Origin: a virus | Taxonomy: Duplodnaviria > Caudoviricetes | Virus record (IMG/VR): IMGVR_UViG_3300035156_000168 | Span: 1-63,934 of that record | Reading direction: 5' to 3' (one strand) | Length of the DNA: 63,934 bases | Shown: positions 1-63,934 of the stretch, in pieces | How the letters are laid out: the number at the start of each line of letters is the position of its first letter | Position numbering within the stretch: position 1 is the stretch's first letter | Translations under genes and position numbers: made by a program | The notes under the pieces: model-generated | Seen by the model: only the letters and a program-made list of their open reading frames with translations | The model's database searches: none | What the model was told of the DNA's origin: nothing

Positions 1-117
1 CGACCATGTGCGAGCGAAAAGTCTCCGAGGGGTGCCGTGGCGGTACGCGCTCCGCTGCATCGACGACCTCGGGCTCATCCTCCGCGCCGAAGTCATCTGG
101 GCGAAACCCAACGGGCT
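1..117 (+). repeat. 117-bp exact repeat of 62771-62887 (circularisation/assembly overlap)
   Basis: Base-by-base identity up to position 117, first mismatch 118 vs 62888, then diverged homology. Confidence 0.9.
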
Positions 118-1471
118 GCCGGAGTCGGTGACCGACCGGGTGCGGCGCAGCCACGAACAGTGGTTCCACTTTACGAAGGAGCCGCGCTACTTCTCGGCGG
201 TAGACGAAATACGGGAGCAACACAGCGCGCACTCACTGCGGTACGAGGCAAACGGTCGTGGCGCCAAGTACCAGACGGATGCTGTCGATGCCCGCCGCGG
301 AGTTCAGGGATTCGGCGGCAACGGTAACCCCGCACACTCTCTCAACCCTCTCGGCAAGCTCCCCGGCTCAGTATGGACGATCGACGGCGGCGAATCGCTG
401 ACCCGTTCCGTTCTCAACGCCGTCGCAGCAGGCGGCATCACACCCGACGAAGGCGAAAGGATTCTGCTGTGGACGCAGGATGGTTCATGGAGCACGTTGC
501 TCAATCAGACGGCGGCTGCTAGGTCTGGAAAGGGTGGAAAGACAGCAGGGGATACGCCAAAGTCTCCGTCGGTGGAGGTGTCAAGCAGCTCGTCCATCGC
601 GTCTCCTACGAACTTTTCGTCGGACCCATCCCCGCAGGGCTCACCATCGACCACCTCTGTCGCAACACATCCTGCGTCCGACCGGACCACCTTGAACCAG
701 TCACCCTTCGCGAAAACATTCGCCGCGCCAACCCCGAGCGGACAACCTGCAGACATGGACACAGCCTGGCCGACGCCTACATCGACATCACCGCCGCCGG
801 TTTCCACCACAAGAAATGCCGGACGTGCGTCCTCGCCCGAGTCCGACGCAGGCGAGAGCGTTTGGGTGGTGCCAACGCAGCCGCTCAAGGTTCCGGCTGA
901 GCTTGGCATCGACCATTTCGCAGCATTCAGTATGGAGTTCCCGAGGCGGATCATTCAGGGCTGGTCGCCGGCGGGGGTGTGCAGCGCATGCGGCCAGGGA
1001 CGGCGGCCGGTGGGGACCCGTGAGCATGTCGTTGAGGACATGTATCCCGATGCGGCGGTGCCGGGATTGAACAACAGGAACCGCACCGAGTACCGGGGGC
1101 GACGCAGCGTGACCGTGACGCTCACCGGCTACGCCTGCGCCTGCACCGAAGGAACGTACGAGTGGGAATCGCCTAACGGCGTCCCCCATCTGGTCATCAG
1201 AGGCTTGTGCGCCACATGTGGCAACGGTCCACACCCGCTACCACCGACGACACCTTCGACCGTGCTGGACCCGTTCGGCGGCACCGGCACAACCGCGCTA
1301 GTGGCGAAAGCGCTGGGTCGCCACGGCATCTCAGTCGACATGTCCGCTGACTACTGCCGTCTCGCGGAGTGGCGGACCACCGACCGCGGCCAGCTCGCGG
1401 CGGCGATGCAAGTCGAGAAACCCGCCGCAGTGCACCCCGACCAACTCGACCTGTTCGGCGGTGCAGCATGA
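1..1471 (+). CDS. DNA methyltransferase (N4/N6 family), allele A, 5' part missing
   Basis: IWAKPNGLPESVTDRVRRSHE, DHFA and SAM-binding DPFGGTGTT motifs; carries a ~160 aa Ser/Thr/Pro-rich insert and a Cys-rich insert; N-terminus is found at 62418. Confidence 0.9.
   Translation, partial: DHVRAKSLRGVPWRYALRCIDDLGLILRAEVIWAKPNGLPESVTDRVRRSHEQWFHFTKEPRYFSAVDEIREQHSAHSLRYEANGRGAKYQTDAVDARRGVQGFGGNGNPAHSLNPLGKLPGSVWTIDGGESLTRSVLNAVAAGGITPDEGERILLWTQDGSWSTLLNQTAAARSGKGGKTAGDTPKSPSVEVSSSSSIASPTNFSSDPSPQGSPSTTSVATHPASDRTTLNQSPFAKTFAAPTPSGQPADMDTAWPTPTSTSPPPVSTTRNAGRASSPESDAGESVWVVPTQPLKVPAELGIDHFAAFSMEFPRRIIQGWSPAGVCSACGQGRRPVGTREHVVEDMYPDAAVPGLNNRNRTEYRGRRSVTVTLTGYACACTEGTYEWESPNGVPHLVIRGLCATCGNGPHPLPPTTPSTVLDPFGGTGTTALVAKALGRHGISVDMSADYCRLAEWRTTDRGQLAAAMQVEKPAAVHPDQLDLFGGAA
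469..900 (+). pseudogene. HNH endonuclease nested in an alternative frame of the methyltransferase, with internal TAG at 520-522
   Basis: Manual translation: GC*VWKGWKDSRGY...HRVSYELFVGPIPAGLTIDHLCRNTSCVRPDHLEPVTLREN...TCRHGH...CRTC; AAAGGA RBS 7 nt before GTG 469. Confidence 0.88.
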
Positions 1472-1806
1472 CCAACTACGACAACGGCCGCCGCTTCGAA
1501 TGGGCTGTCCGCGACCACCTCATCGCCGACGGATACGACGTGTTCCGCTCAGCCGGCAGCAAAACCAAAGTCGACATGACAGCCGTAAAAACAGGACAAC
1601 TGCTGTTCGTTCAATGCAAACGCGACGGCAAAATCAGCCCCGCCGAACGCGCCAAACTGCTGCAACTCGCAACGCTCATCGACTGCGCTGTGCCTGTTCT
1701 CGCGTGGAAAGAGTTCGGCAAAGCGCAAGTGCTCCTCGCCGTGCTGACTGGGCCGGGGCCGAAAGACCGACGCCCGTTCCACACCGACCAGGTTGTCGCC
1801 GCATGA
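1468..1806 (+). CDS. Holliday junction resolvase-like PD-(D/E)xK nuclease
   Basis: GRRFE...GY.VFRSAGSK..VD...LLFVQCK, Hjc-like pattern; ATGA overlap. Confidence 0.75.
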   Translation: MTNYDNGRRFEWAVRDHLIADGYDVFRSAGSKTKVDMTAVKTGQLLFVQCKRDGKISPAERAKLLQLATLIDCAVPVLAWKEFGKAQVLLAVLTGPGPKDRRPFHTDQVVAA

Positions 1807-16414: not shown

Positions 16415-16729
16415 ATGGCTGAGAAGTCAGCAGCAGCACCGATCGCGACGCCGGACGAAGTGGCGAAGCTGGCCGAAGCCCAAGACGCCGAGTACGGGAC
16501 ATTCATTGCCGCCGCACCGATCGCGTTCAACGGCGCCAACGCCTACAACGCGGGCGACATTGTGCCGGTGTCGAACGTCAAGAAGTACGGCTATGACACC
16601 ACAGGTCAGGTCGTGAAGATCGGATCCGCTGCCGCGCAGAAGATCGTCGGTGCCGTGCACTCTCAGAACGCCACCGTCCAGCAGGTCGAAGTGCCCGTCG
16701 TTTCGCTCGGCGTCCCCGTCAAAGACTAA
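16415..16729 (+). CDS. hypothetical virion protein
   Basis: AAGGAG RBS; AYNAGD.VPVSNV. Confidence 0.6.
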   Translation: MAEKSAAAPIATPDEVAKLAEAQDAEYGTFIAAAPIAFNGANAYNAGDIVPVSNVKKYGYDTTGQVVKIGSAAAQKIVGAVHSQNATVQQVEVPVVSLGVPVKD

Positions 16730-17507
16730 GAAGCTTCTTGGCGGCACGTTGGCGAGCAACCTTTTCACGCTGACACTGTCGACAAGACCTGCCGCCACGA
16801 GGCATTCTCTCGTTTGGCGGAATCCGGTAGGTGTTCTCCTCGGTGAACTCGTGACCTCGCTTGCAGTGCGTCTTGCCGATGTTTGCGAGTACGGGGTTCG
16901 GCTTTCCTGTTGGTGGCTTTCGCTTGAGTTGGTGCATCCGCTCGCATTCCAAGCAGGATCGCCCACCGTTCGGTAAGCGGTCGCTGACTGGAATGACGCG
17001 GGTGTTCCCAGGTGTGAACTCGTGACCTCGCTTGCAGTGAGTCTTCAAGACGTTCCTGTTGATGCCTCGGTTGGTATTGATCTTCTGCGTCACAGGCTCA
17101 AGATGATCGGGCCGAACACACGCTCTATGTGGGCAGGCATCACCGCCAACGCACTCTGTCTTCGCGCGAGTGTGACAAAGATGGTCAAGACCGAGCCCCT
17201 CTGGCACGGGTCCAACGAGCGATTCATACGCATATATGTGCGCGATCACCTGTTGCCTCTTGTCGCCTTCCTGGCGGTGGAAACTTCCGTAGCCATGTGA
17301 CAGCCCGCCCGTCCAGATCCAGCAGGTGTCTGTCTTGGTGACGTGACTCCAAAAGCGTGTCGTCTCGTCTTGCTTCCACCTGTTGTCCGTGAACGTGGGG
17401 TCTCCCCACTTTTTCCACCGCTGGTAGTGCTTCCCGCACATCCCGCGCGCGAGCAGGGCGCCCATGCAGTACCTGCCGTTTTCGTACACTCCGCAACCGC
17501 GTGCCAT
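16719..17507 (-). CDS. HNH homing endonuclease, antisense in tail operon
   Basis: CWIWTG, LDHLC, CVRPDHLEPVT..N, two KTHCKRGHEFT repeats; extended -10 TGCTATAGT 6 nt before ATG (leaderless). Confidence 0.9.
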   Translation of the reverse strand: MARGCGVYENGRYCMGALLARGMCGKHYQRWKKWGDPTFTDNRWKQDETTRFWSHVTKTDTCWIWTGGLSHGYGSFHRQEGDKRQQVIAHIYAYESLVGPVPEGLGLDHLCHTRAKTECVGGDACPHRACVRPDHLEPVTQKINTNRGINRNVLKTHCKRGHEFTPGNTRVIPVSDRLPNGGRSCLECERMHQLKRKPPTGKPNPVLANIGKTHCKRGHEFTEENTYRIPPNERMPRGGRSCRQCQREKVARQRAAKKLLSL

Positions 17508-17542
17508 AGGACGACTATAGCACACCTGAGAGGATCAGTTTA

Positions 17543-49875: not shown

Positions 49876-50391
49876 GTGACGGTTTGGCTTCCTATACCTG
49901 GGTACGAGCGCACTTACGAAGTGTCCGATATGGGCGAGGTTCGGAGCAGGCCGCGGCCGAGAACCCGAGGCGGAACCCTTAAGACATGGATCGGACGCCG
50001 CGGCTACCCGGTTGTATCGCTCGTGCAAAATGGCCGACAAGCAACTCGCGTGGTTCATGGACTTGTGGCCTTAACGTTCCTCGGGCCAAGACCCGAGAGC
50101 CAGGAAGTGCGTCACCTGAACGGTGACCCCACGGACGCGCGCGCCTCAAATCTCGCTTACGGCACCCGAGGCGAGAATGTTCGAGACAAACGTCACCACG
50201 GCAGTGACCACAACGTGAACAAGACTCACTGCCCACAAGGGCATCCTTATGACGAATCCAATACCTACGTTCTGCCTTCGCGGCCGGGCGCTCGTTACTG
50301 CCGCGAGTGCGCCAGGGTGAGAGCTCTTGCTCGTTACCACGCAAAGCGCACCCCCGACTTTGACGAGGCGTGGCGTCCCGATGCCGGTTGA
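49876..50391 (+). CDS. NUMOD4-HNH homing endonuclease
   Basis: W.PIPGYE..YEVSD.G.VRS, VRHLNGD......NL.YGT..EN, KTHCPQGH. Confidence 0.9.
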   Translation: MTVWLPIPGYERTYEVSDMGEVRSRPRPRTRGGTLKTWIGRRGYPVVSLVQNGRQATRVVHGLVALTFLGPRPESQEVRHLNGDPTDARASNLAYGTRGENVRDKRHHGSDHNVNKTHCPQGHPYDESNTYVLPSRPGARYCRECARVRALARYHAKRTPDFDEAWRPDAG

Positions 50392-61171: not shown

Positions 61172-61512
61172 TGACACTGACTCAGACGTTGGATTCGGTG
61201 GTCGCCATGTACCACGAGCAAGCCATCGAAGCAGCAAAGTCCGAAGCGGAACACAAGCGTGTTCGTGCGAAACGTTTTCTGAAAGCCCGCCACGACGGAG
61301 ACGCGAAGTCGATCGCGGAAGCCGACGCAATCGCCGAAGCCGACGACGTTGTCGCCGACCTGTACAGCAAGCGGCTGATTGCTGCCGCTATCGCTGACTC
61401 TACCAAGCAGAAGATCCTCAGCCTGCGCGAAGAAATCGGGTGGCAGCGCTCGTTGATGGCTAACCGTCGCGAAGCCGACCGCATTCACGCGATGGACGGA
61501 TCGGTCACATGA
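61168..61512 (+). CDS. helical hypothetical
   Basis: Coupled, coiled coil. Confidence 0.55.
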   Translation: MMTLTQTLDSVVAMYHEQAIEAAKSEAEHKRVRAKRFLKARHDGDAKSIAEADAIAEADDVVADLYSKRLIAAAIADSTKQKILSLREEIGWQRSLMANRREADRIHAMDGSVT

Positions 61513-61889
61513 GAACCACAGGACCAACCGCCGACCTGCGGATACAAGCCGTCGAACGCACCAACGGTTTATGCCAGAAGTGCTGGCGGCCGGGCAGCCA
61601 ACTCCATCACCGCAAACCACGCGGTGCGGGCGGGACCAGCGACCCGACCATCAACGCCCTGCCGAACTTGGTGTGGCTCTGCCTCGCCTGCCATGCACAC
61701 ATCGAGCAGCACCGGCTGGCGAGCTACGAAACCGGCTGGCTTGTGCGGCGCAACGCCAACCCAGCCGAGCAATATCTGATCGACAACCTGGGCCGGATGT
61801 TGATGCTGCTACCCGACGGCTCCGTCACCTACTCGGACGTGTTGCCGGACGTGTTTCTGCCGTCCGGTGACCTCACTCCACCTTTCTAA
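61509..61889 (+). CDS. HNH endonuclease
   Basis: CQKC, HHRKPRG.GG, NL..LC..CH. Confidence 0.8.
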   Translation: MRTTGPTADLRIQAVERTNGLCQKCWRPGSQLHHRKPRGAGGTSDPTINALPNLVWLCLACHAHIEQHRLASYETGWLVRRNANPAEQYLIDNLGRMLMLLPDGSVTYSDVLPDVFLPSGDLTPPF

Positions 61890-61900
61890 CAGGAAGTGCC

Positions 61901-62236
61901 ATGACCAAACCCCCTGACTTGTTCGCCCGGGCGGCCGCGTCCGACGACAGCGCCACCCGCCAGTTAGGCGCCGAAATCGAAAAGTCGACCGCCGACCTGA
62001 AACAACGCCTGCGAAACGAAGCGGAAACCGAACTGGCGGCGTTGGAGAAGCGCCGCGCCGAACTGCGCGCCGTCATCCACCGCCGCACCGAACAGAAGGC
62101 CACCAAGGAAGCCGACGACAGCCGACCCGCAGCCATTCGCGCCTGGGCGATCGAGCAGGGCATGGGCGTCAAAAAGCGTGGGCGGATCGCCGCTGAAATC
62201 GTCGAACTGTACGACGCATGGCACGGACAGCTATGA
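61901..62236 (+). CDS. Lsr2-like DNA-binding protein
   Basis: IRAWA...G..V..RGRI...IV..Y C-terminal domain. Confidence 0.8.
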   Translation: MTKPPDLFARAAASDDSATRQLGAEIEKSTADLKQRLRNEAETELAALEKRRAELRAVIHRRTEQKATKEADDSRPAAIRAWAIEQGMGVKKRGRIAAEIVELYDAWHGQL

Positions 62237-62421
62237 CCGTCACCTACGCCCCGCCCGCAGCGTGGCGCACCATCCGCTACGACTACCGAATCCGGCTACC
62301 CCAACAGCACAGTTGGATACGCGCCACCGACCGGCAAGTCGTCGAAGCCGACAAAATCAACCGACGCTACGGCGACCGGATCGTCGGCGTCAGGTACAGG
62401 ACACGGCAGGTGCCGCTGTGA
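62233..62421 (+). CDS. hypothetical
   Basis: Coupled both sides. Confidence 0.45.
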   Translation: MTVTYAPPAAWRTIRYDYRIRLPQQHSWIRATDRQVVEADKINRRYGDRIVGVRYRTRQVPL

Positions 62422-63934
62422 CCGGCTCAGCTCAAATCATCCGCGGCAACGCCCTCGACCTGCCGCTGGCGGACGCGTCCGTCGATCTCATCTGCACGAG
62501 TCCGCCTTATTTCGGTTTGCGCTCGTACACCGACGCAGGGGAGCACTACGCCGGCCAGATCGGTGCGGAAGCAACACCCACCGAGTTCGTCGACGCGCTC
62601 ATCCAGGCGACCCGCGAAATGGTGCGCTGCTTGAAACCGTCCGGGTCCATCTGGATCAACCTCGGCGACTCGTACGCAGGCGCCGCTCCCGGACCGCAAG
62701 GCAAGGCAGGCCAGCGCGCCGACCGGGCCAGCGCTAACGAACCGTCTCGAGCGGCGGTCGCGCGCGGCGGCGACCATGTGCGAGCGAAAAGTCTCCGAGG
62801 GGTGCCGTGGCGGTACGCGCTCCGCTGCATCGACGACCTCGGGCTCATCCTCCGCGCCGAAGTCATCTGGGCGAAACCCAACGGGCTACCAGAATCGGTG
62901 ACCGACCGGGTGCGGCGCAGCCACGAGCAGTGGTTTCACTTCACTCGGGAGCCGCGCTACTTCTCGGCGGTAGACGAGATACGAGAGCCCCATGCACCAT
63001 CGTCGATGGCTCGGTACGCCAGCGGATTCGGACAGACAAAGCACAGCGCAGAACTAGACAAGCGGTACAAGGCTGACACGCTTGAGGCCAACCCGCTCGG
63101 CAAGCTCCCCGGCTCGGTGTGGACGGTGCCGACGCAGCCGTTGCAGGTGCCGCCCGAACTGGGCGTCGACCACTTCGCATGCGTTGACACTGACACGGAG
63201 ATGCTAACCAGTCGCGGCTGGTTGCGCTGGGACGAAGTCAAGGTCGGCGATCTAGCCGCCAGTTACGACGTGACCACCGGCCGATCGCGCTGGACCCACG
63301 TCCAAGCGGTCAACACCTACGACTACGACGGCGACTTGGTGTCCGTCGAATCGCGCGACCTGTCCATGCGTCTCACACCCAATCACCGCACCGTCGTCCA
63401 GCGCACTCGGGGACGGAGCAAGCAGCGCGGTCCGGTCGAGATTGTGGAAGCGCGGCAGCTCGACCGATACCACTCCATCCCCCGCTCCGCCCCGTGGACG
63501 CACACCACCGACGACAGCGTCGGCACCGGATGGGCGAGCATCCTCGGATGGGTCGCGGCTGAGGGTTGGTATCAAGGCCGCTGCGTGTACCTGTCGCAGT
63601 CTGCAACAGCCAACCCCGACAAGGTGAAGCAGATCGACGCGCTACTACCTGACGCGACGTGGCGGCGGGAGCGGCAACGCGAGTGGCGCGGCACACCGTG
63701 GCTCGACGTGCAATGGCGCCTGTCAGACACTGACGCGATCGCGGTCCAGAAGGCGATGCCGGACAAGCTGCTGCCTGCGTCGCTCATCACCGCCACCACG
63801 TCCGAGCGGTGGGCTGTGCTCAACGCCTTCATCGCTGGCGACGGTCACGTGCGCCTAGACGATGAGCGCATCTCGATCTTCCAGAAGTCGCGGCACAACT
63901 TGGACGTGTTGCAAGCCATCGCGGTCACGTTGGG
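62418..63934 (+). CDS. DNA methyltransferase allele B with intein, runs off the window (not in ORF track)
   Basis: SVDLICTSPPY catalytic motif, LKPSGSIWINLGDSY; frame open to the end. Confidence 0.9.
   Translation, partial: MTGSAQIIRGNALDLPLADASVDLICTSPPYFGLRSYTDAGEHYAGQIGAEATPTEFVDALIQATREMVRCLKPSGSIWINLGDSYAGAAPGPQGKAGQRADRASANEPSRAAVARGGDHVRAKSLRGVPWRYALRCIDDLGLILRAEVIWAKPNGLPESVTDRVRRSHEQWFHFTREPRYFSAVDEIREPHAPSSMARYASGFGQTKHSAELDKRYKADTLEANPLGKLPGSVWTVPTQPLQVPPELGVDHFACVDTDTEMLTSRGWLRWDEVKVGDLAASYDVTTGRSRWTHVQAVNTYDYDGDLVSVESRDLSMRLTPNHRTVVQRTRGRSKQRGPVEIVEARQLDRYHSIPRSAPWTHTTDDSVGTGWASILGWVAAEGWYQGRCVYLSQSATANPDKVKQIDALLPDATWRRERQREWRGTPWLDVQWRLSDTDAIAVQKAMPDKLLPASLITATTSERWAVLNAFIAGDGHVRLDDERISIFQKSRHNLDVLQAIAVTL
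63180..63934 (+). mobile_element. intein with LAGLIDADG endonuclease, truncated by window end
   Basis: CVDTDTEMLTSRGW (block A), LTPNHR (block B), LGWVAAEG and LNAFIAGDG. Confidence 0.9.

Follow-up and report, generated by a model that had tools for sequence, protein, structure and literature searches.

A probable ShiLan-like cassette: an HNH endonuclease gene hidden out of frame in a DNA methyltransferase gene of an IMG/VR phage record

Introduction

The closest described systems to the element reported here are the ShiLan domains, HNH endonuclease genes hidden out of frame in the DNA methylases of mycobacteriophages (Arsenault, Gosselin and Gogarten, Genes 2025, PMC11855218; earlier account in Gosselin et al. 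2023, PMC9957025). As described in PMC11855218, the host frame runs stop-free through the insert, the HNH gene occupies the third frame and the insert starts with an 11-residue repeat of the downstream host segment; the same account reports no intron or intein signature, predicts a loop and describes a disjunct distribution. Here we analyzed IMG/VR record IMGVR_UViG_3300035156_000168 (Caudoviricetes) over its whole length of 63,934 bases, hereafter the window (64% G+C, classed linear, about 88% complete). Its first gene encodes an N4/N6 DNA methyltransferase and carries an insert with an HNH reading frame. We consider this insert likely to be a ShiLan-like homing-endonuclease cassette, hidden out of frame just before the codons for SVWxVPTxPL.

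PMC11855218 also describes a second hidden out-of-frame nuclease open reading frame (ORF), in the methylase-containing gene of Pacc40 (gp60), and its repository and supplements contain additional hidden HNH inserts from ‘other phages and prokaryotes’. A 2025 preprint covers out-of-frame nucleases in inteins, and the genome announcement PMC12613952 mentions a methylase of this type.

The likeness between the window and the ShiLan case extends over several traits. In both, a phage methylase of the PF01555 type carries an insert with a stop-free host frame, and an HNH of the HNH_3 family is encoded in the third (-1) frame (E=3.3e-9 for the Totinger copy). The start of the insert repeats downstream residues in both, namely SHEPVVVARKP / AFEPIVVARKP in Totinger gp66 and SVWT / SVWV in the window, with repeats of 4 to 27 residues among the relatives of the window. 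An intron or intein signature is lacking in both, the distribution is disjunct, and the host gene family also houses inteins and in-frame LAGLIDADG inserts.

Homing genes housed in group I introns and inteins have in common with this element a site-specific nuclease inside a conserved gene, spread to empty alleles and a host gene that is spared. They differ in that no splicing element was detected here, and the host product would be kept by means of an open frame, not by excision. In nrdA of Aeromonas phage Aeh1, the free-standing homing endonuclease mobE splits the gene into two working pieces. A nuclease thus lies inside a host gene without intron or intein and host function is retained there as well, but the host gene has become two ORFs, whereas a single ORF overlaps the nuclease in the window.

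Anatomy of the insert and its HNH frame

The interrupted methylase gene, allele A, is the ORF at 2-1471 on the plus strand (frame 2, 489 codons), which is open at its 5' end at the contig start and stop-free throughout, including the insert. It matches Pfam N6_N4_Mtase (PF01555) at E=2.8e-20 and 73.6 bits. Motif I (FGGTG) is present, and motif IV (SPPY), which was found in allele B and in relatives, falls upstream of the contig start. A second methyltransferase allele, allele B (62178-63932, plus strand; N6_N4_Mtase, E=7.2e-19), has no insert at the SVW site and reads PGSVWTVPTQPL there, or in a longer reading ...LGKLPGSVWTVPTQPLQVPPELGVDHFA. Allele A reads ...LGKLPGSVWT, followed by 160 extra residues that extend from PGSVWT to a second SVW, and then SVWVVPTQPLKVPAELGIDHFAAF. 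The 480 nucleotides (nt) of this insert (380-859, plus strand) are missing from allele B, and most close homologues of the methylase lack them too. In the methylase frame the insert contains zero stops, and Ser, Thr and Pro together make up 48% of it beyond the first 30 residues.

Upstream of the insert lies a 5' remnant of the host segment, SVWT (368-379, plus strand), which is one of the imperfect direct repeats around it. Near its start, the insert encodes a leader of 25 codons in the methylase frame, ESLTRSVLNAVAAGGITPDEGERIL (392-466, plus strand), conserved as a peptide over seven loci, and within it a Shine-Dalgarno-like GAAAGGA (455-461, plus strand) 7 nt ahead of GTG469. The HNH_3 endonuclease frame (469-900, plus strand) runs from GTG469 to the stop TGA898-900 and is offset by -1 relative to the methylase. 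Its match to HNH_3 (PF13392) covers 523-897 in frame 1, with E=2.7e-15 and 56.2 bits against a cut-off of 24.8, and the D, H and N of the core (DH...N) are invariant in a 5-row alignment. The family zf-His_Me_endon, the zinc-binding loop family of homing endonucleases, scored 26.8 bits on the HNH frame, just below the cut-off of 27. The methylase resumes in the 3' host-segment copy, SVWVVPTQPLKVPAE (857-900, plus strand), which overlaps the last 14 codons of the HNH frame. A free-standing HNH paralogue of the same phage (16719-17525, minus strand) is 37% identical to the insert HNH over 116 residues (E=7e-16).

Inside the HNH frame, an in-frame TAG (520-522, plus strand) stands in place of a conserved Trp codon, as seen from alignment with intact homologues and from the sample's own contig. 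The Trp concerned belongs to C-W-x-W, which is CWIW in the other HNH of the window and CWEW in L004, the closest free-standing HNH. In the methylase frame, the bases of the TAG fall within GCT AGG (Ala-Arg). The contig from the sample itself carries the TAG at depth 15.6, with no other letter listed, and no start codon follows it in the HNH frame until near the end of the ORF. A reading of TAG as a sense codon was unsupported: TAG ends 8 of 35 long frames of the window in a crude count, and there is therefore no sign of its being read as sense. We conclude that the nuclease of the window was recently knocked out by a TGG to TAG change, and that the methylase frame is still open.

A sequence-only reading, made by a model from the letters of the window and a list of its ORFs, had proposed an HNH gene in a second frame of an uninterrupted methylase ORF. 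The analysis bore out most of its description: the unbroken ORF, some 160 residues present in allele A and missing from allele B, their Ser/Thr/Pro-rich composition, a ribosome-binding site for the HNH gene and the similarity to the HNH at 16719. It had further called the frame a complete HNH nuclease with a C-terminal Zn finger; the nuclease family was recovered and the zinc-binding family came just short of its cut-off, whereas the TAG contradicts ‘complete’. That stop codon had been overlooked, as had the earlier publication of the idea and the nature of the insert's first 25-30 codons, which encode a conserved methylase-frame peptide and are not filler. Gene callers give just the long methylase ORF at this locus, and the nuclease is overlooked in annotation.

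Relatives with the same arrangement

When 5.8 billion proteins were searched with the methylase-frame reading of the insert as query, 14 other methylases with the insert in this frame were recovered, all metagenomic and 447-675 residues long. In 12 of them, BLASTP identity to the queried region was 39-62%, at 99-100% coverage; for P0014 and P0015, whose inserts are shortened or diverged, the coverage was 22% and 36%. DNA loci were fetched by pattern scans built from the insert alignment, with patterns of the methylase frame taken outside the overlap and with partial matches accepted. Full inserts were present at L084 and L085 (IMG/VR) and at L087 and L088 (metagenomes), and a fifth locus, L089 (metagenome), is cut by its contig end. 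Insert-free relatives from the same scans were L090 and L091, together with L092 and L093 from Planobispora and Kribbella genomes. A search for related loci with the insert of the window as a single protein confirmed none.

None of the four complete loci has a stop in the methylase frame across the insert, and L089 is open to its end. L084, L085, L087 and L088 each contain an intact HNH ORF at the same -1 offset (HNH_3, E=7e-8 to 2e-16). A GGAG-like run, made of the (D/E)EGER codons, lies 5-10 nt before the likely HNH start in 5/5 loci, and the insert lengths (480, 489, 540, 480 and 483 nt) are every one divisible by 3. Residues D, F, G, T, G and T of motif I are invariant in 15 of 15 aligned rows, as are the C-terminal catalytic motifs.

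The closest free-standing HNH, L004, is 48% identical; it immediately precedes a homologous methylase gene that is uninterrupted, and it overlaps the start of that gene. HNH genes immediately upstream of methylase genes were seen in unrelated phages, at L004 (2929-3372), L096 (2369-2731, PopTart gp59) and L098 (1-198, Totinger gp65), which suggests that HNH homing genes and methylase genes have a standing association. In the window, a small HNH ORF (61509-61889, plus strand) closely precedes allele B.

Other inserts were encountered in the same methylases. A close relative, P0018, has an N-terminus like that of allele B and a C-terminus nearly identical to that of allele A, and bears a 56-residue insert between two SVW copies, without leader and without HNH. 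In-frame LAGLIDADG inserts without visible intein ends (P0059, P0097, P0114, P0122) and classical inteins at AEIIW|C...HN|S (P0051, P0117, P0125) were also found. Like the ShiLan methylase family, for which the same has been reported, this methylase subfamily is a hotspot of selfish inserts.

The open methylase frame against measured baselines

How often such a frame would be open by chance was read from HNH genes that stand alone. In the free-standing homologues L004-L083, the counterpart of the methylase frame, +1 relative to the HNH, was stop-free in 1 of 80 (1 of 43 at G+C >=0.6), with a mean of 2.7 stops per 100 codons, so that about 4 stops are expected per gene. A second sample comprised 80 loci chosen by HNH-frame patterns alone; the 80th was the locus of L084 itself and was excluded, and of the remaining 79, all free-standing genes, 4 had no stop in the +1 frame across the aligned HNH. 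All five embedded copies, counting that of the window, have an open methylase frame (5/5), despite an identity of 31-46% in that frame; these five copies are not independent. Chance is excluded as an explanation of the open methylase frame, and the embedded copies form a conserved family.

Synonymous-codon resampling, with a codon table drawn from all long frames of the window, gave a probability of 0.017-0.069 per locus for an open +1 frame. The same procedure gave <1% for the +2 frame, against 9/80 in real free-standing genes; it is therefore poorly calibrated, and the empirical baselines were used in its place. L118, L132, L155 and L177, which have long open alternate frames over the HNH, proved to be ordinary neighbouring or spurious frames and not embedded copies.

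Selection in the two frames

Within the overlap, identity in the HNH frame is 40-64% and always above the 31-46% of the methylase frame. In the closer pairs, the changes are concentrated at HNH codon position 3 (35/40/62 at positions 1/2/3 for the window and L084; 36/42/64 and 34/32/63 for others). Since the changes pile up at this position, the nuclease sequence is what is selected in the overlap, and the methylase frame is merely kept open. In the +1 frame of 41 high-GC free-standing HNH genes, Ser, Thr and Pro amount to 35% on average (range 23-50%), and the richness of the loop in these residues is mostly a by-product.

A by-product composition would also suit a methylase that was killed by the insert, the gene being dispensable and its frame left open by high GC and shared ancestry. 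PMC11855218 describes similar methylases as non-essential in related mycobacteriophages, which points the same way. We nevertheless regard a dead methylase as highly improbable. The frame has stayed open while methylase-frame identity between loci fell to 31-46%, the open-frame baselines are 1/80 and 4/79, the C-terminal catalytic motifs are the same in 15/15 rows, and inserts that have become shorter stay in frame.

The leader shows a different pattern. Over seven loci (21 pairs), its differences at methylase-frame positions 1/2/3 number 198/120/368, and in several of the seven the two remaining frames contain stops; the leader is therefore a real methylase-frame peptide. Its consensus is ES-L-x-R-S-V-L-x-A-V-A-x-G-x-I/L-T-x-D/E-E-G-E-R-I-L, in which the final codons, (D/E)EGER, double as the ribosome-binding site of the HNH.

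An AlphaFold2 model of P0006 was built from a 15-row alignment (mean predicted local distance difference test, pLDDT, 50.9; predicted template modelling score, pTM, 0.50). The leader was predicted as two short helices, 256-265 and 271-280, at a low-confidence pLDDT of about 45-55. Residues 279-416 had pLDDT<50 and no predicted secondary structure, and parts of the methylase core reached 80-92.

A leader hairpin without HNH was observed at another methylase site, in L086 (2486-2581; IMG/VR 3300018954_000002), which reads SHEQWF[...ELVRAVLEQVAAGTLTVDEGERLL...THETAF]HLVKSPRYF and again has a degenerate host-segment repeat. At the same site (SHEQWF|H), P0046 carries about 190 inserted residues, and a hairpin that looks similar by eye follows RCID in P0075, at a third site. 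A likeness of the leader to the helix after motif X in short mycobacteriophage methylases (Boilgate, Rando14; tblastn extension) was too weak and was not used. We put forward only tentatively, as something we rather doubt, that the 25-residue helical hairpin, which is under purifying selection, is a host-frame adaptor through which a methylase could accept the insert, and that the cassette is more than a tolerated parasite. The hairpin would then be a portable ‘insertion-tolerance’ module, and homing endonucleases would have a third general means of residing in genes, in addition to introns and inteins.

Is the insert removed before the methylase works?

The insert might instead be removed, by an unrecognised self-splicing RNA, by an intein-like reaction or by ribosomal bypass between the SVW copies, in which case the open frame would be incidental. 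The two SVW copies would permit a seamless excision restoring PGSVW-VPTQPL, and phage introns with HNH genes are well known (discussed in PMC11855218). Neither window 1-1600 nor any of L084, L085, L087 and L088 matched an Rfam family at E<=1, although a very divergent intron core might escape such a search. The host-frame reading of the insert matched no Pfam family and lacks intein ends, as it begins (T)IDGG and ends AGE, with no Cys/Ser/Thr start and no His-Asn end. The HNH ORF nearly fills the insert. A spliced element needs no open host frame, yet the frame is open in 5/5 copies as compared with 1/80 and 4/79, and the leader peptide is under selection in that same frame. On this evidence, removal of the insert appears quite improbable.

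A fusion of methylase and HNH through a -1 frameshift was also considered and rejected, since in L084, L085 and L089 stops interrupt the HNH frame 5-12 codons upstream of its start, and no shared slippery site was seen.

The results thus agree with the sequence-only reading in its central proposal, a homing endonuclease tolerated without intron or intein by keeping the host frame open as a disordered loop; the frames are open in 4/4 loci and the AlphaFold2 model is disordered in this region. A methylase frame broken in insert-bearing relatives, which that reading had named as evidence to the contrary, did not occur in the four complete loci or in the 14 called proteins.

Junctions and patchy distribution

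On the 3' side of the insert, the methylase always restarts at SVWxVPTxPL. The 5' remnant of the same segment varies, being SVWT, SVWD, SVWEI, SVWTIA or SVWEIPTEP, and in P0012 it comprises 27 residues (SVW...HFAAFPSE). The insert is therefore bounded by imperfect direct repeats, and recombination between these flanking repeats would restore an empty allele. The same sample contains a related allele without the insert (depth 9.8), with the joint 383->932.

With a threshold of E<=1e-20, the methylase subfamily numbers 2,635 proteins. The best 120 by C-terminal flank (C-flank) include 119 other proteins; the insert occurs in 7 of these and is missing from the four closest to the window. On a FastTree phylogeny of 122 C-flanks with 15 insert-bearing rows, which omits five proteins that lack the anchoring motif or have a C-flank <150 residues, 13 state changes were counted, of which at least 7 are forced by well-supported branches. 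This pattern fits repeated gain, loss or within-gene recombination.

Copies of the insert also decay while the host frame survives. P0013, compared with its near-identical sister P0005, misses about 50 residues including the HNH core and is still in frame; the insert of P0014 is likewise shortened in frame; and the TAG of the window leaves the methylase frame open.

These observations bear on whether the cassette has been domesticated, either as a nuclease-methylase pair acting from two frames in a restriction-modification or addiction-like manner, or as a loop and hairpin that have become a working part of the methylase. The long purifying selection on the HNH, which has diverged along with the methylase and shows no sweep, would be expected of such a function, and the conservation of the leader in the host frame and the HNH genes that immediately precede methylase genes in L004, PopTart and Totinger point in the same direction. 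However, the insert occurs in just 7/119 of the other best C-flank homologues, in a scattered fashion, its copies decay (the TAG of the window, the deletions of P0013 and P0014), and the methylase frame of the overlap shows no amino-acid selection. We consider domestication quite improbable.

Proposed mechanism and points against it

In the ShiLan-like reading, which we favour as likely, the cassette has three parts. The first, about 25 methylase-frame codons, would form a small helical hairpin, and its (D/E)EGER codons double as the Shine-Dalgarno sequence of the nuclease. In the second, some 140 codons in the -1 frame make up an HNH_3 gene whose codon choices keep the methylase frame stop-free. 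The third is a copy of the host segment that belongs to the cassette, starts at SVW and differs slightly from the host's. The methylase would be translated by read-through as a single chain, with about 130 Ser/Thr/Pro-rich disordered residues looping out and with activity presumably retained in the long form, and the nuclease would be made by internal initiation on the same mRNA. It would presumably cut insert-free alleles, and repair would copy the cassette in.

Several points weigh against this reading. The nuclease of the window is broken, and so there is no homing here now. The HNH is less conserved than the flanks (40-64% vs 54-75%), unlike what recent sweeps would leave and unlike the ShiLan domain. 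The scatter of the insert on the tree is no tighter than that of shuffled labels (92 of 500 shuffles were as low), and within-gene recombination could also give such scatter. The protein matches could be open frames alone and hence a biased sample, and there are just four complete DNA loci, of common ancestry, from scans that began with methylase-frame patterns; these scans used patterns outside the overlap and accepted partial matches (L089), and a broken frame would therefore have surfaced. The AlphaFold2 model is poor overall, with neither SVW copy confidently placed. The case against splicing or bypass is, as far as the sequences go, the absence of known signatures.

Differences from the published systems

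The window family differs from the ShiLan domains in the methylase subfamily and the insertion site. By BLASTP, the insert-free methylase PopTart_63 and the methylase of the window or of L004 share motif I and one or two short segments, and the HNH of Totinger gp66 is just 31% identical to that of the window over 59 residues. According to PMC11855218, 18 nt of the insert precede the start of the ShiLan HNH, no ribosome-binding site is reported and leaderless initiation is proposed, whereas the window family first has a 90-nt leader, a conserved host-frame peptide that supplies the Shine-Dalgarno sequence. ShiLan domains are nearly identical across divergent methylases, while the HNH of the window family has diverged more than its flanks. 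Descent from the ShiLan family was rejected, as the similarity is at the level of motifs or Pfam families only.

Pacc40 gp60 resembles the present case in that its relatives Sashimi and Tiff81 are described as having a homologous HNH free-standing just upstream of the methylase, like L004, and in that an intein is present elsewhere in the same gene. It differs in being a 1341-residue helicase-methylase fusion, which the window proteins match at motif I and weakly in the intein region. The HNH of the window gave no tblastn match to Pacc40 gp60 at E<=0.01, and homology was rejected on account of motif-level matches only. With similarity to the published cases confined to motifs and Pfam families, we regard the window element as one of the same kind, and as belonging to a separate family at a different site.

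Ends of the record and neighbouring genes

Allele B runs past the contig end, and the record stops inside its gene. After DHFA, from nt 63180, allele B is interrupted by an intein-like sequence (63180-63932, plus strand) that is itself cut by the contig end. It begins CVDTDTEMLT... and holds TPNHR and two LAGLIDADG-like motifs; against Pfam it gave a weak match to LAGLIDADG_3 alone (E=0.0011, below the cut-off). Allele A has the HNH insert without an intein, and allele B the reverse.

The record thus ends in homologous methylase genes on both sides. Positions 1-218 and 62771-62988 are 95% identical over 218 nt and are followed by divergence, and a further matching stretch connects 343-379 with 63089-63125. 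A Logan contig of the sample reaches 513 nt upstream of window position 1, at depth 22 vs 15.6 for allele A. Among sequencing runs, a single DNA run, probably that of the source sample, contains this DNA, and no RNA run is listed for it. The record may represent a walk round a circular or terminally redundant genome, ending in the allele of a second strain; alternatively, the phage has two methylase copies. Megablast of 1-1500 against phage records gave no match.

Of the other HNH genes in the window, the paralogue at 16719-17525 encodes 268 residues with repeated zinc-ribbon-like C-terminal modules. A further HNH-type gene (49981-50322, plus strand) is a weaker relative (29% identity, E=3e-6).

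Significance

The kind of element has already been published (PMC11855218), and the window is a further member, in a recently inactivated copy. It differs from the published account in the peptide-coding leader that bears the Shine-Dalgarno sequence and in its long co-divergence with the host gene. To what PMC11855218 describes, the present analysis adds a measured null for the open frame and a frame-by-frame account of selection, and L084, L087 and L088 are natural intact members of the insert family. The ‘hidden HNH’ arrangement is accordingly not a quirk of a few cultured mycobacteriophages, but recurs as an independent, long-lived family in environmental phage methylases.

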